From: Candidatus Latescibacterota bacterium
GTDB taxonomy: Bacteria > Latescibacterota > UBA2968 > UBA8231
Assembly: GCA_965197905.1 (NCBI GenBank)
Contig: CBDAOB010000003.1
Location: 512,001-576,000 of the forward strand
DNA length: 64,000 nt
Reading direction: 5' to 3'
Positions 36,814-59,598 of the stretch are shown here, piece after piece (position 1 is the first letter of the stretch; every line of letters begins with the position of its first letter). The notes beneath the pieces were generated by a model. That model had not been told where the DNA came from and searched no databases. It saw only the letters and a list, made by a program, of their open reading frames with translations. Made by a program: the position numbers and the translations under genes.

Positions 36814-38295
36814 CTACCCGCTGACGTCGTGCAGCGGATAGAGCTTTCGTCCCAGCCTGCGAAAATTGATGTGGCTGGAATCGTGCAGGCTCGGCTCTGA
36901 GACCGCGTATACTGCTCCCGCCCAATCCTCGAAGCCGGCGCGAAAATGAGCGGTCGACTTCACGCCGATGTAGCGCATCTGCTGCGGATCCAGACCAAGC
37001 GTCTTTGAAAACGCCGTGTCGAACGGCTGTTCGCGCACAGTTGCCAGAATGACATGTATCCCGTCTTGTCGAATATAAGAGGATAAACCCATGCTGCCCT
37101 CGAGCCCTTCGTACATGGAGCCACCATAGCGGAACTTGCCGTCTGACAGTCCCACGACCTCGAATGTCATCGGCACTGGCTCCCCCTGCATGGGCGTCGA
37201 CTTGCCGCCTACATCCATTGTCAAGGTGGCGCCGATTCCAGCCTCATGGCACTCCGCGATCACTTCCGGGTCGACCATATACAGGACGCAAGCGTCCTGG
37301 AGACCGGCCTCAACGAAGGTCCGCAGCATGCCGGTACTGTCGCCTGGCGATCCCCCACCTGTGTTATCGTGCCGGTCGGCAAACACGATCGGGTATTTTC
37401 CTTCCGCGTCGCCCTGGGCGAGCGCTTCGCGCGTGGTGGGTACGTGAAAATGCCAGTCGGCGCGTCGTTCGTACAACCACGCGCCCAGCTCGTCGGCGTA
37501 GGATTGAGCCAGGGCCTGGTCGTTGTCGGTGGCGATGTAGACGGAAGCTCCCATGTCGGGCACATCGGACAGCGGGTAACAGGTCGCGATCGATCCGCAG
37601 ATGACCCCTGGTTGGGCCTCGATCCGGTGGAGCTCGTCGATCGCCTCCTTCATGGGTGAATGTGCAGTTACCTGATTCATGCCCCATATCATAGGAATCT
37701 GATGCAGGGCCATGGTCGGTTTCACACCTTCCTCATGGATTCGCATCAGGACATCGGCGCACTCTCTGCTACGTTCGGCCATGTCGGTCTCCGGATAACT
37801 CTTGCGCCCGATGAGCACGTCGGCGACCTCGACCATTCGGGCTGACACATTCGAATGGATATCCAGCTGTGCAAGAATGGGTGTGCCCGGGCCAACGACT
37901 TCGCGGATGGCGGCCATAATGTGGCCCTCCGGATCATCAATTCCGTCCACTTCGCCCAGGTTGCCCACCACCATCGAGCCATGCAGATCCAGCAGAACCC
38001 CATCGACTTCGCCGGCGTCGGCCACGCCCTGCAACAGGTCGTTCAGGATGCTGTCGAAAACCGGTCGCGGTGCGGGTGCGCTGGGCTGCGCTTCGGCGAA
38101 TGCCGTCGGAACGAGTTCGAATCCATGTTTATCGGCTCCGTCGATGAAACCGCCGATGGGGCTGTTGGTACCACGGTAGGTCTCGAGGATTTCGGCGCCC
38201 CGCTGATATCCGCGCTCTCGAAAGGAGTCCAGATTTGTCTGTACCAGGGTAAAAGTGCTCGTTTCGTGGCTAATTCCACCGGTTGCTACACGCAT
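36814..38295 (-). CDS. MlrC/M81 metallopeptidase
   Basis: GISHETSTF, LDLHGSM, LDIHSN, DNTGGGSPGD and VKSTAHFRA. Confidence 0.9.
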   Translation of the reverse strand: MRVATGGISHETSTFTLVQTNLDSFRERGYQRGAEILETYRGTNSPIGGFIDGADKHGFELVPTAFAEAQPSAPAPRPVFDSILNDLLQGVADAGEVDGVLLDLHGSMVVGNLGEVDGIDDPEGHIMAAIREVVGPGTPILAQLDIHSNVSARMVEVADVLIGRKSYPETDMAERSRECADVLMRIHEEGVKPTMALHQIPMIWGMNQVTAHSPMKEAIDELHRIEAQPGVICGSIATCYPLSDVPDMGASVYIATDNDQALAQSYADELGAWLYERRADWHFHVPTTREALAQGDAEGKYPIVFADRHDNTGGGSPGDSTGMLRTFVEAGLQDACVLYMVDPEVIAECHEAGIGATLTMDVGGKSTPMQGEPVPMTFEVVGLSDGKFRYGGSMYEGLEGSMGLSSYIRQDGIHVILATVREQPFDTAFSKTLGLDPQQMRYIGVKSTAHFRAGFEDWAGAVYAVSEPSLHDSSHINFRRLGRKLYPLHDVSG

Positions 38296-38430
38296 TGAAG
38301 GCTCCAGAAGCCAATTTTCCAGCTGCCGAATTGACGAAATTCGCCTAATTACCGCTGGTAGCTCATCTACCGGGGAGGAGATGTCGGCCTGGCTGCCGAT
38401 TGTGGCACACCGCTACCTGAGAGATAACCC

Positions 38431-38458
38431 TTGCAATCCATCCAATATTCCCCATATT
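38431..38458 (+). promoter_or_regulatory. Candidate sigma70 promoter for csp
   Basis: TTGCAA-N16-CATATT, followed by hairpin TTCTGCAA-ACG-TTGCAGAA (38474-38492). Confidence 0.4.
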
Positions 38459-38525
38459 AAGGCAATCGCGTTTTTCTGCAAACGTTGCAGAAGAGCATAA
38501 TCTGTTGGCAGTCGTTCTAATCGAA

Positions 38526-38636
38526 GTAGAGTCCTATCCTGGGCCGGAAGTAGTCTCCTACCCTGTGTAGTTTGCTACCCCCAAAGTAGAGCCTACCCCG
38601 TAGTGTCCTACCTAGACTCAAGTATAGATTCCTACC
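38526..38636 (+). repeat. Array of six GTAG-N3/4-CTAC mini inverted repeats in the csp leader
   Basis: Units start at 38526, 38550, 38567, 38586, 38600 and 38624; four are perfect and two have one substitution. Confidence 0.8.
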
Positions 38637-38692
38637 GAAGTTATTGGAGCGCCCTGTACCAGCCTCAATCTATCGTGAAAGGATAGGACACC

Positions 38693-38902
38693 ATGGCAGA
38701 ACGCGAGACCGGAACCGTCAAATGGTTCAACGATGCTAAGGGCTTCGGGTTCATCGAACGCGCTAACGACGCAGACGTGTTCGTTCACCACAGCGCCATT
38801 CGCGGCGAGGGATTCCGTTCCTTGTCGGAAGGGCAGCAGGTTGAATTCGAGGTCGTTCAGGGACAGAAGGGTCCCGCCGCTGAAGGAGTTACGCCCCTCT
38901 AG
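38693..38902 (+). CDS. cspA: Cold-shock protein
   Basis: GTVKWFN, RNP1 KGFGFI and RNP2 VFVHH. Confidence 0.97.
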
Positions 38903-38922
38903 CGTGCATCAGAAATAGATTG

Positions 38923-38968
38923 AGAAAAGGGGCGGTGTACGTCGATACATCGCCTCTTTTTCTTTCTT
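38923..38968 (+). terminator. Intrinsic terminator after csp
   Basis: AAAAGGGGCGGTGTA-cgtcga-TACATCGCCTCTTTT followed by TCTTTCTT. Confidence 0.8.
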
Positions 38969-38992
38969 ACAAAAAATTAGAAGGAGAATATT

Positions 38993-39208
38993 ATCGCCAG
39001 ACCATCCCAAAACGCCATAGCAAAACGAAACCGGGAACAAGCCAAGAGGCAAAAGCGAGAGGAAAAAGCGGCTCGCAAGGCGCAGCGCAAAGCAGATAAG
39101 CTTGAACCAGAATTGGAGCATGCAGTGGATGGAGAGTTGGCTGACGGCGAAGGCACCGAAGAAGATGGAGCCGCTACAGACGATTCTACCCCCCAGGTCG
39201 AAGCCTAG
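38993..39208 (+). CDS. 71-aa basic/acidic small protein with non-canonical ATC (or ATT) start; absent from the ORF track
   Basis: SD AAGGAG 38981-38986, ATC at 38993 and in-frame TAG at 38978. Reads (M)ARPSQNAIAKRNREQAKRQKREEKAARKAQRK...PQVEA*. Confidence 0.7.
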   Translation: MARPSQNAIAKRNREQAKRQKREEKAARKAQRKADKLEPELEHAVDGELADGEGTEEDGAATDDSTPQVEA

Positions 39209-39357
39209 GACAACACGCCGCGAACAGCCTTTGGACGGAACCATAGGCTGGACTTAGAAAGAACACACAGAACCACGGCGCAGCACCGCTGCCCCCATTG
39301 GGACGTGATCCGAGTCCCAAGAAATTTGGCCCTCTGTTTTTCACCGCGGTAACCCGC

Positions 39358-40107
39358 TTGAAGTTATCTCCGAAACAGATTGAGCAGTTCCACGTCAACG
39401 GGCTCCTTGTAGTCGAGCAGCTTCTGACTGCCAAGGAGGTCGAGGTTGTGAGCGTGCGCGCCGAGTGGATCGCCAGCGGCAAGGCAGAGCATGTTCCACG
39501 GGAGCGGCTTCAGGTAGAGCCGTCAGGCGAGGCTGACGCTTACGCCGACTCCCTGCGCAAGATGAGCCACATTGCCTTCTACGACGACGTCTTTGAGGCG
39601 CATGCTCGCAATCCGAAGGTTCTGGACGTCATCGAGTCCCTCCTGGGGCCCGACATCAAGTTTTACCAGGACCAGCTCTTCATGAAACCGCCGAAGATTG
39701 GTTCGCGCCAACCCTACCACCAGGATGCTCCCCTTGGATTTCACATCGACCCTCCGGACATGGTGAGCTGCTGGGCGGCCCTGGACCAAGCCACCATCGA
39801 AAACGGGTGTCTGTGGGTGCTTCCGGGCACGCACAAACAGGGTATCACCGAGCGGTCCGAATGGAAGAAATTCGAACAGATGGCGCTGGACGGTCGGCTG
39901 CCGGAGCAGCAGCCGGTGGAATTGAACCCGGGCGACTGCAGTTTTCACCACGGCCTGGTTCTGCATAGCAGCAGGCCCAATCTTACAGATCGACGACGCC
40001 GGGGATATGCAACCCACTATGTGAGCGCCCGCTGCCGCTATACCGGGCCTCCCGAAAAACACGACGCCATGCTGGTGAGAGGCCGTTCCTTCTCAGGATG
40101 TATATGA
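39358..40107 (+). CDS. PhyH-family dioxygenase
   Basis: KLSPKQIEQF, FMKPP, YHQD, ENGCL and LHSS. TTG start is uncertain. Confidence 0.88.
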   Translation: MKLSPKQIEQFHVNGLLVVEQLLTAKEVEVVSVRAEWIASGKAEHVPRERLQVEPSGEADAYADSLRKMSHIAFYDDVFEAHARNPKVLDVIESLLGPDIKFYQDQLFMKPPKIGSRQPYHQDAPLGFHIDPPDMVSCWAALDQATIENGCLWVLPGTHKQGITERSEWKKFEQMALDGRLPEQQPVELNPGDCSFHHGLVLHSSRPNLTDRRRRGYATHYVSARCRYTGPPEKHDAMLVRGRSFSGCI

Positions 40108-57457: not shown

Positions 57458-59598
57458 GTGCGCCACGAGGCGCCAGAGAACCGGGTGGGATGCAAGGACC
57501 CACCAACGGGCTGTCGCAGCAGCCCGTTGAAGCTGGAGGCAGCCTGACCCTGGGAGCGCAGGGGAAGGTGGAAGCAGCCTCGACAACGACAGAGTGGAGT
57601 GGCACCTCCAGACACTCCACGTCTGGCAAGCAAGACGGAATGGTGTAACCCGAAGTGAACCAGTGATGGAACCCCCTTTAGCGGCCCGCCAACCCAAACC
57701 TGGTGGATAAGGGTTGGTACGCAACGCACGTGGTCGGATATATGACCGACTGCGACTCTGGGGAGGTGTGATACCCACCGAAGCAGAGGCCTTGGAGAAT
57801 GCCTGCGGCGTACCCAAGGCGAAGTTGCAGGGGAAAAGCTGGGCACCTCCCCCGTCAAACGGTTCATGGTGAACGTGGGAACCGAGCCGAGTCCGACCGT
57901 TATCGGGGCAGCGCGCTGTCCGCTGTGGGGCTTGGCAAGGGACGGAGCCTCTGTAGTAGTCCGCGAGCGGGAAAGCCGCTTACATGGCGAAGGGAGGCAG
58001 CAAGTTGCGCAGTGGGGTACTGGAAAAACAGGAGGACGCCGGTGAATGCCAGCGCTTCGTGGCCCGAGGCAGAACAAGCCCGTAATCGAGTACTGGAAAT
58101 CCAGACCAAACTGCACCGTTGGGCTGTAGAGGATCGAAGCAAGTGCTTCGACGACCTGTTCAACCTGGTGTGTGACCCGGCGTTTTTGAGTGTAGCCTGG
58201 CGTCGGGTGCGCAGCAACAAGGGTGCTCGTTCGGCCGGAGTGGACGGACAAACGGCCTACTCTGTGGAGACGGAACGCGGCGAGGAGGCCTTTCTCGCCG
58301 AGGTGCGGGTTGATCTGAAGACCCGCAGTTTCCGGCCTCTGCCCGTACGCGAGCGGTTGATTCCGAAACCTGGCACAACGAAGAAGCGCCGGCTCGGCAT
58401 CCCAACCGCTCGGGACCGAGTGGTCCAAGCCGCACTCAAGCTGGTGCTCGAACCGATCTTCGAAGCGGACTTCAAGCCGTGCTCCTACGGCTTCCGCCCG
58501 AATCGGCGGGCTCAGGACGCCATCGCCGAGATTCATCAATTCTGCTCCCGCTCTTATGAGTGGGTGGTGGAGGGCGATATCCGTGCTTGTTTCGATGAGA
58601 TTGATCACGCAGCCCTCTTGGACCGCGTGCGTCGACGTATCGGTGATAAGCATGTTCTGAGGCTTGTAAAAGCGTTCTGCAAGGCCGGTGTCCTCACGGA
58701 ACAATCGGTGTTGCAAGAAAGCACTTCGGGCACTCCGCAAGGCGGTATTCTCTCACCGCTGGTGGCAAATATCGCCTTATCCGTCCTCGACGATTATTTC
58801 ACTGAGGTCTGGAGAAAGGTGGGCGCTACCTCCAGTGCGCGACAAGCGCATCGGCGAAAGGGGCTACCGACTTGTCGGCTTGTCCGTTACGCTGACGATT
58901 TCGTGCTGCTGGTGGCGGGCACCGAAGCTGCAGCGTATGACCTGCGCGACCAAGCGGGGGTGACTCTCACCCCCATGGGTCTGCACCTGTCGGAGACGAA
59001 GACCGCCATCACGCACATCAGCCGTGGCTTCGATTTCCTGGGCTTTCGCATTCAGAAGCGACGGAAACCGGGCCCGGTTGGCGCACGCATCTATACGTGG
59101 CCAAGAAAGGAATCTCTGGCCCGGTTGAAGAGCACGGTGCGCGCAGTCACGAGAACGGGTCGGCAGAGGCCGTTGAAGAGCCTTCTGCGCCAACTCAATC
59201 CGGTGTTGCGGGGGTGGGCCAACTACTTTCAGTACGGGGTGTCGAAGGCCACTTTCAACTACGTGCGGGGCTTCACTTGGCGCCGCGTAGTGCATTGGCT
59301 GCGCCGCAAGCACCCGCGCTTTAATTGGAGGAAGCTGAAACGCCGCTACCTGCCAGGATGGTGGCCCACCGAGGACGGGATTGCTCTTTACAACGTCGGC
59401 GAAGTAGCAGTGACTCGTTACCGCTATCGATCGGCGCGGATCCCTTCTCCCTGGCCTGCGACAACCGGATGAGACTCTGCGGTCACACGGCACCTTGTGG
59501 AGAGCCGGATGCGTGGTAACGCGCACGTCCGGTTCGGAGGGCGGGCCGGAGAAACCCACATCACGCGTGTGGCGCAGGGCGCTCCGGTCCGACCCTAC
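57458..59598 (+). mobile_element. Group II intron, 2141 nt
   Basis: 5' GTGCG; domain V GAGCCGGATGCG...CGCACGTCCGGTTC; domain VI ending CGACCCTAC; removal restores the host frame. Confidence 0.95.
58042..59472 (+). CDS. ltrA: Group II intron reverse transcriptase/maturase, no HNH endonuclease domain
   Basis: AGGAGG SD then GTG; RLGIP..RDRVVQ, SYGFRP, GTPQGGILSP, YADD, FDFLGF and GWANYF. Confidence 0.95.
   Translation: MNASASWPEAEQARNRVLEIQTKLHRWAVEDRSKCFDDLFNLVCDPAFLSVAWRRVRSNKGARSAGVDGQTAYSVETERGEEAFLAEVRVDLKTRSFRPLPVRERLIPKPGTTKKRRLGIPTARDRVVQAALKLVLEPIFEADFKPCSYGFRPNRRAQDAIAEIHQFCSRSYEWVVEGDIRACFDEIDHAALLDRVRRRIGDKHVLRLVKAFCKAGVLTEQSVLQESTSGTPQGGILSPLVANIALSVLDDYFTEVWRKVGATSSARQAHRRKGLPTCRLVRYADDFVLLVAGTEAAAYDLRDQAGVTLTPMGLHLSETKTAITHISRGFDFLGFRIQKRRKPGPVGARIYTWPRKESLARLKSTVRAVTRTGRQRPLKSLLRQLNPVLRGWANYFQYGVSKATFNYVRGFTWRRVVHWLRRKHPRFNWRKLKRRYLPGWWPTEDGIALYNVGEVAVTRYRYRSARIPSPWPATTG

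Follow-up and report, generated by a model that had tools for sequence, protein, structure and literature searches.

A predicted expandable rod of mutually pairing palindromic units in the leaders of cold-shock genes from a Candidatus Latescibacterota family

Introduction

Cold-shock proteins (Csps) are commonly regarded as weak RNA binders with hardly any specificity, and sensing of their own level is known in few species. The csp leader analyzed here lies in a 64,000-nt stretch (the whole of the DNA examined, called the window below) of a 6.69-Mb Candidatus Latescibacterota genome, and it contains a series of short palindromes of the type GUAG/CUAC. The question raised by this locus is what such a series does in front of a csp gene: whether it folds as separate hairpins or as one structure, whether it gates the ribosome binding site (RBS), and whether it could be a site through which a Csp senses its own abundance.

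The csp locus and its leader

The sequence of the array was found as originally described, with six GUAG/CUAC-type units in 110 nt (38526-38635). Each of the six is followed by C, while the accompanying statement that AA usually precedes a unit was too strong, as this holds for three of them. No other cluster of at least three units within 60 nt exists in the genome, and when the 228-nt leader was dinucleotide-shuffled 20,000 times, two units were the most obtained; a six-unit array is far beyond chance.

The array precedes a gene for a 69-aa protein with a cold-shock domain (38693-38902, forward strand; PF00313, E 3.4e-29), and an intrinsic terminator-like hairpin (38924-38961, forward strand) marks the end of the csp transcript. 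Besides csp, the neighbors are an MlrC-type peptidase gene on the opposite strand and, also nearby, a PhyH gene. The arms of the terminator hairpin are near-identical in the window (L001), L012 and L348.

A pattern search upstream of homologous leaders identified a σ70-type promoter on the forward strand (TTGCAA at 38431-38436, a 16-nt spacer and CATATT at 38453-38458), from which transcription would start near 38465. By a strict pattern, a TTGNNN-N15-18-TATATT-like site lies upstream of 41 of 64 homologous leaders, and in those with a 5′ hairpin of the window type it is 38-47 nt from the 5′ arm described below; a generic consensus promoter scan did not call the window site. One RNA-library contig spans 38486-38899 in a single piece with 12 differences, so that the leader is continuous with the csp coding region, and a second RNA run yielded pieces identical to 38562-38694 and 38665-38860, although such contigs show neither strand nor ends and DNA may be present. 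Positions 38000-38458 (except for a 38-nt piece) and 38918-39500 had no RNA cover, which is uninformative alone, and the cover of 38503-38522 in three RNA runs represents a relative's leader. These data support placing the leader element inside the csp transcript, and the array is not upstream of the predicted transcription start, since the conserved promoter precedes the leader.

The promoter (38431-38458), a 5′ hairpin and a helix that closes over the array had been missed in the original prediction. The 5′-terminal hairpin, P0 (38470-38496, forward strand), has 12 bp and a 3-nt loop, with a predicted energy of -14.5 kcal/mol. It is optional in the family: most leaders with a called promoter have a hairpin of varied sequence at this position, and it is missing from L013, L014, L035 and L313. 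The 5′ arm of the closing helix, GUUGG-CAG-U-CGUUC-UAAU (38504-38521), shows the highest sequence conservation of the element; its 3′ arm is AUUG-GAGCG-CC-CUG-UA-CCAGC (38643-38663). Between the arms, and like them on the forward strand, are unit 1 (GUAG-AGUC-CUAU, 38526-38537), the 5′ strand of an inner helix called P5 (UGGG, 38540-38543; family consensus AGGC), unit 2 (38550-38561), unit 3 (38567-38578), unit 4 (38586-38596), unit 5 (38600-38611), the 3′ strand of P5 (CUCA, 38617-38620; family consensus GCCU) and unit 6 (AUAG-AUUC-CUAC, 38624-38635). In a constrained fold P5 is weak in the window leader. Unit 2 is missing from the same-genus leader L006. Downstream of the closing helix, the predicted 5-bp hairpin over the Shine-Dalgarno (SD) region, CTATC-gtgaaag-GATAG (38670-38686, forward strand), is indeed present, but it is confined to the window's genus (three of 64 leaders).

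Two further features of the window were observed outside the csp transcript. A small open reading frame after csp (38993-39208, forward strand) encodes a Lys/Arg-rich and then acidic product without a Pfam match and has its own promoter-like site (38966-38994). The frame is seen in the window, L374 and L375; in three genomes of the genus there is no ATG, GTG or TTG at the start site, the reading frames begin with ATC, ATC or ATT, 6-7 bases after AGGAG, and a non-AUG start is likely. Of 75 other family genomes, two have this frame. In addition, domains V-VI of a group II intron are found at 59500-59598 on the forward strand (Rfam RF00029, 57 bits).

Conservation and distribution of the element

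In csp leaders from 41 related genomes, a closing helix of the form GUUGG-CAG-y-CGUUC / GAACG-yy-CUG-nn-CCAAC surrounds between zero and six units, with the AGGC/GCCU inner helix often present inside it and a 5′ hairpin usually preceding it. The expectation that the array belongs to a conserved csp leader element was thus borne out by related genomes, and judged by this alignment the array is the variable interior of that element. The comparison supports a general plan in which an optional 5′ hairpin is followed by a bulged helix of 13-17 bp that would close a rod of units, as well as a unit form of GUAG-(pyrimidine-rich 2-4 nt)-CUAC across the family.

Covariance models of the long form (R1) and the short form (R2) were used to define the distribution. 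R1 matched 41 of 63 genomes of the window's family and none of 87 other genomes of the phylum; R2 matched 57 of 75 family genomes and three of 56 others in the class. The three R2 matches outside the family, together with three weak ones inside it, were rejected as chance matches within coding sequence. Seven of ten weak R2 matches away from csp leaders were retrieved, six of them in coding sequence and one before no csp gene, and 40 csp leaders from outside the family contained no units and gave no R2 match. When 59 metagenomic loci were collected by pattern, without csp information, R1 matched 27, and it is these 27 that lie upstream of csp. Pattern matches in other phyla numbered at least 117 genome matches, 80 of which were run against R1; the 11 of those listed that have csp are all recognizable as leaders of the window's family. 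Viral occurrence was considered and rejected, as 47 and 14 viral pattern matches had no csp and the best model match had an E value of 0.12. Named records with the element are titled Ca. Latescibacterota (three), Handelsmanbacteria (one), uncultured bacterium (two) and Gemmatimonadaceae (one). The last of these, L230, carries the family's leader and csp gene, with a leader score like that of a leader from the same genus; its title and its GTDB placement probably disagree. As far as these models and patterns detect it, the element is restricted, among what was searched, to one family of Ca. Latescibacterota, and is found in most of its genomes.

Every intact leader checked is upstream of csp and in the same orientation; the retrieved genome matches that depart from this are one at a contig end, one csp remnant and two matches to the pattern alone. 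In the remnant (L117, 286-480) the element is followed by only the last csp codons and then by an RRM-like gene. This arrangement is a csp deletion remnant or a misassembly, and its reading as an RRM leader was rejected, as the csp 3′ end remains after the element. In L372 an RRM-like gene follows an intact csp gene.

The Csp paralogs of the family form one clade against three outside rows (support 100/98, 66 columns), which is consistent with inheritance and duplication of the leader together with the csp gene. Several family csp genes have the closing helix without units, or no leader at all, so the units are dispensable. A 5′ UTR motif of a gene for a nucleic-acid-binding protein is regarded as a candidate protein-binding leader in the available text of PMC11109978, and the motif found here is a conserved structured 5′ UTR element of such a gene.

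The fixed position of the element bears on the idea that the leader, or a processed rod, is a sponge or decoy that titrates Csp or base-pairs in trans with the mRNAs of csp paralogs. Multivalent, self-complementary units common to several paralogs per genome would suit this role. However, the element is upstream of csp and codirectional with it in all intact cases checked, a U-rich tract follows the core in only six of 64 leaders, and the RNA contig continues into the csp coding region; we regard a sponge as improbable.

Other csp leaders were observed in the course of this comparison. Tandem csp pairs in genus g12 (L021, L024, L112, L123, L124) have one leader per gene, with four and two units, and the second leader starts ~20 nt after the first csp stop codon. 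Sister families f2-f4 (L029-L034, L066-L071, L073) have a different conserved csp leader motif, a GGCAAGGAUC-AGAA(G/A)(U/C)UCC-GRUCYUUGCC hairpin plus a U tract, terminator-like in form, which sits shortly before the SD and a TTG or GTG start. Rfam matched four such loci only in the cspA coding region, and this hairpin is possibly a Csp-antiterminated attenuator.

Pairing between units

Each unit is palindromic, so self-pairing and pairing with another unit are both available. The array had been taken for six independent hairpins, a claim that did not survive folding: in the core folded alone at 37 °C, self-hairpins had a probability of at most 0.14, and unit 1 paired with unit 6 (0.80 and 0.54), unit 2 with unit 3 (0.79) and unit 4 with unit 5 (0.81). 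In constrained folds that included the downstream region, the six-hairpin model was the least stable of five. Six separate hairpins were therefore rejected by folding as well as by covariation of the cross-pairing form.

The seemingly imperfect units of the window are a compensatory pair, with GUAG of unit 1 facing CUAC of unit 6 and CUAU of unit 1 facing AUAG of unit 6, where the A of unit 6 compensates the U of unit 1. Pairing of the first with the last unit equaled or exceeded self-pairing in all 40 scored leaders (of 42), being better in 15 and equal in 25; when only Watson-Crick pairs were counted, it was better in 17, equal in 22 and worse in one. Relatives from several genera have the compensatory variants CUGC/GCAG, CGAC/GUCG, CUAU/AUAG and GUUG/CAAC, and inner units show AUAG/CUAU in L323 and UUAC/GUAA in L043 and L107. 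In leaders with one unit, this unit caps the rod as a hairpin, and L061 and L062 are separated by a compensatory change. Within one alignment there were 19 two-sided changes in two cross helices versus two in two self helices, and changes of this kind occurred at 22 of 37 pairs, a level that none of 500 shuffles reached, in an alignment fitted to the cross form and composed of kin sequences. The P5 helix is paired in 91% of cells across 42 leaders.

On the csp strand, G-U combinations outnumber A-C by 84 to 48, an asymmetry that supports action of the structure at the RNA level. This matters for a DNA-level explanation, under which a dimeric factor would bind the units as operators, or the units would be REP-like. 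As DNA, each unit reads as a palindrome that starts with GTAG, and some REPs begin GTAG. Against this, spacer length is variable, the units are tied to the closing helix, compensation joins one unit to another and makes use of G-U pairs on a single strand, and in place of the many dispersed copies of REP or BIME elements the 6.69-Mb genome has a single unit cluster and a single R1 match. The array is not a dispersed REP, and a DNA-level role of either kind is very improbable.

Taken with these changes, the alignment supports a rod in which a unit pair would give two 4-bp helices separated by a pyrimidine-rich internal loop. The unpaired letters next to CUAC are themselves conserved: of 74 sites, 69 have C at -1, 54 have U at -2 and 65 have C at +1. 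Leaders in which all units are perfect (genera g13 and g12) are predicted to form separate hairpins, so the rod is not the sole fold and both may be used. The number of units per csp gene ranges from zero to six and differs between paralogs; it is six versus five within the window's genus and three versus one in near-identical leaders, and by this evidence unit number appears to change by slippage. The new feature at this locus is an expandable rod made from mutually pairing palindromic units.

Access to the ribosome binding site

The covarying structure stops 20-35 nt before the start codon and so does not itself cover the RBS. A set of marginal stems acting on the RBS as a graded thermometer had been among the earlier suggestions. 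Predicted RBS accessibility was nearly flat, with a mean of 0.41 at 5 °C and 0.45 at 37 °C (61 leaders), and the SD hairpin belongs to one genus; an equilibrium thermometer was rejected.

A kinetic thermoswitch similar to that of E. coli cspA is a separate matter. In the cold the rod would form first and leave the RBS open, and in the warm the 5′ arm would pair with the N-D-A-K codons and a unit with the RBS. The predicted full fold of the window mRNA makes exactly such a swap, with the 5′ arm on codons N13-K16 and unit 5, for which the RBS is an alternative partner in the window's genus, on the RBS. The consensus arm approximates the reverse complement of these codons, with 10-11 Watson-Crick pairs and one bulge (L011, L023, L040, L045), and it is with the N-D-A-K stretch that long-range pairing occurs in Rfam RF01766. 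A switch would also explain arm letters that are conserved without a closing-helix partner, as at column 17, unpaired in 20 of 41.

The family as a whole argues against this reading. Pairing of the arm with codons 13-16, predicted in the window, lacked support as a family feature: it was not above controls, it showed no covariation with the leader's own coding region (p=0.59, 36 leaders), only four of 36 arms beat shuffles, and just 4-7 of 61 full-length folds gave it a probability above 0.5. Among csp leaders outside the family, none of 40 showed this pairing at p<=0.05. Anti-SD pairing by units was likewise seen in the window and a few leaders and rejected as a family-wide property, as units and RBS did not covary (p=0.33 over 26 leaders, in two of which the start was mis-called). 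The rod was perturbed by the sequence that naturally follows it no more than by foreign or shuffled sequence (switch energy p=0.93), and the arm is kept in paralogs whose codons have changed. Equilibrium folding is blind to a kinetic switch; weighing these results, we consider the thermoswitch unlikely, if a reading to keep in view.

When the closing helix was enforced, the RBS became more open in 10 of 20 leaders and less open in none. This observation favors a group of explanations in which the rod is bound by something other than Csp (an RRM protein, S1, a ProQ-like or another dsRNA binder) or is a passive stabilizer that prevents the leader from pairing with the RBS and coding region. The tolerance of the rod to its own downstream sequence fits a stabilizer, and an RRM-like gene, its fold judged by eye, follows csp in L117 and L372. 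Yet the opening of the RBS follows in part from the imposed constraint, a pure stabilizer would need neither conserved unpaired letters nor a near-invariant 5′ arm, and the element is seen only before csp genes. Another binder or a stabilizer has a small but appreciable chance of being the explanation.

A model for Csp feedback

A rod specific to csp genes, with conserved pyrimidine loops between weak helices, makes loading by Csp the favored reading, and among the functions first suggested for the array a multivalent protein-binding site is, on this analysis, the best. More specifically, the leader may be a modular Csp-binding feedback element that works through mRNA processing or stability, a proposal to which we give slightly less than an even chance. 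The repeated (A/U)UC-CUAC-C loops would serve as entry sites for a Csp chaperone, either the product of the gene or a paralog. As free Csp increases, it would load onto the loops and the weak 4-bp helices would unzip; the unzipped rod would then alter processing or decay of the mRNA, be it by way of RNase III-type cleavage at the rod or by shielding of the 5′ end. The direct target would not be the RBS, the net effect would be negative feedback as for S. aureus cspA, and the number of modules would set the sensitivity of each paralog.

Parts of this model have precedents. RNase III is encoded in the genome, and CUA within the units fits the YYR sequence that E. coli CspA prefers, albeit weakly, with KD differences of ~5-fold at most (PMC9947658, available text). 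In S. aureus, CspA regulates itself by binding a U-rich arm of the hairpin in its own 5′ UTR and opening this hairpin, which keeps RNase III from processing it, as described in the accessible portion of PMC5815144. Points against Csp entry are that CUA is paired within the rod and that the YYR preference is weak; against RNase III, the rod has many internal loops and no obvious long duplex. The model must also accommodate csp genes without units and the leaders predicted to fold as separate hairpins, and changes in unit copy number could be neutral slippage.

Melting of the rod by Csp might instead expose a C-rich loading site for Rho and cause premature termination. Rho is encoded in the genome, the units repeat UC and CC dinucleotides, and the array is 30% C and 21% G, but this skew of C over G is modest, and in many leaders the core has zero or one unit and measures just 51-75 nt, which is short for a Rho site. 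Termination by Rho is quite improbable.

The feedback model has a more elaborate form that we consider distinctly unlikely, in which the leader would be an RNA counter of chaperone load. Each unit pair would be a two-fold symmetric Csp module, and slippage would add or remove modules, so that the Csp concentration at which a paralog switches would depend on its unit count (zero to six). Given the self-complementarity of the units, leaders opened by Csp could pair between molecules, forming csp mRNA duplexes or assemblies and coregulating paralogs; such assemblies would be the bacterial equivalent of RNAs built of repeated hairpins with mismatch loops.

The leaders provide a natural series of an apparently selected Csp site, with zero to six units on one scaffold and compensatory variants, which makes it possible to test how specific and how cooperative Csp is, and what site number does, in vitro and in a laboratory host. 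For an uncultured phylum they also provide an RNA motif backed by covariation, and they are an example of a regulatory RNA that would evolve by repeat slippage with its fold kept, because palindromic units pair with any neighbor.

Comparison with known leaders and RNA families

The motif was thought to be previously undescribed, and a literature search that covered, of five motif-discovery papers, the main texts and the supplement of PMC2864571 returned no description of it. The main texts of PMC11109978, PMC8632094, PMC5737381, PMC2864571 and bioRxiv 10.64898/2026.09.15.751765 contain, in their available parts, no csp or cold-shock motif, and the available supplement of PMC2864571 has no description of the leader motif. 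Rfam at the gathering threshold likewise gave nothing in the leader region of the window. At a loose threshold the sole meaningful match was RF01766, with 36.1 bits for the window against a cut-off of 78. Eight of ten relatives scored 23.8-68.3 bits, also below 78; csp loci without the element reached 24-69 bits, and the L348 leader alone did not match RF01766 at E values up to 10. Since element-less loci score equally and the leader alone does not match, the score arises from the coding region, and the Rfam scan had no match beyond it. Conserved, transcribed, not a REP and not an existing Rfam family, the array has none of the properties that the original prediction had listed as speaking against it.

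The E. coli cspA family RF01766 resembles the window leader in being a long csp leader (PMC9947658, available text), and in a predicted alternative fold of the window the leader could pair with the coding stretch that is the partner in RF01766 and cover the RBS. In contrast, the RF01766 consensus has no repeat units, and no conserved RBS switch was found in the window's family; the window leader is not a member of RF01766. The S. aureus cspB and cspC leaders are paralogous thermoswitches in which temperature switches access to the RBS and Csps cross-regulate (PMC8034633, in the text available). They share with the Latescibacterota leaders the occurrence of related leaders in paralogous csp genes, whereas their temperature-gated RBS differs from the negative RBS-switch tests obtained here.

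CsrB/RsmZ-type sponges are stand-alone RNAs with GGA in hairpin loops and repeated short motifs in variable number. The Latescibacterota leader also has short repeats whose number varies and to which a small protein could bind in many copies, but it is a leader in cis, its repeats pair with each other, its loops are pyrimidine-rich, and it is continuous with csp in place of the independent transcript and own terminator of a CsrB-type RNA.

The Chlorobi-RRM motif, RF01697, has been read as autoregulatory. Like the present element it is a cis motif confined to one lineage and present several times per genome, and it is named for RRM genes; it differs in having two short hairpins, ~75 nt and no repeats, and shares only GUUGGC, there within a small hairpin (PMC2864571, available portion). 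The RF01697 covariance model did not match the leader at E values up to 10, and the leader has no two-hairpin structure.

The nearest parallel to the favored feedback model is S. aureus cspA, whose 5′ UTR hairpin is likewise a structured csp-leader hairpin away from the RBS, and in which Csp on a pyrimidine-rich arm is a model for feedback through RNase III. That leader is a single hairpin with one U-rich motif, whereas the Latescibacterota leader has a closing helix and zero to six mutually pairing units; the function of the S. aureus leader is demonstrated, while that of the Latescibacterota leader is putative and read from sequence (comparison with the available text of PMC5815144). Structured csp leaders and leaders through which RNA-binding proteins regulate themselves are already known, and we infer that the Latescibacterota leader may work alike.
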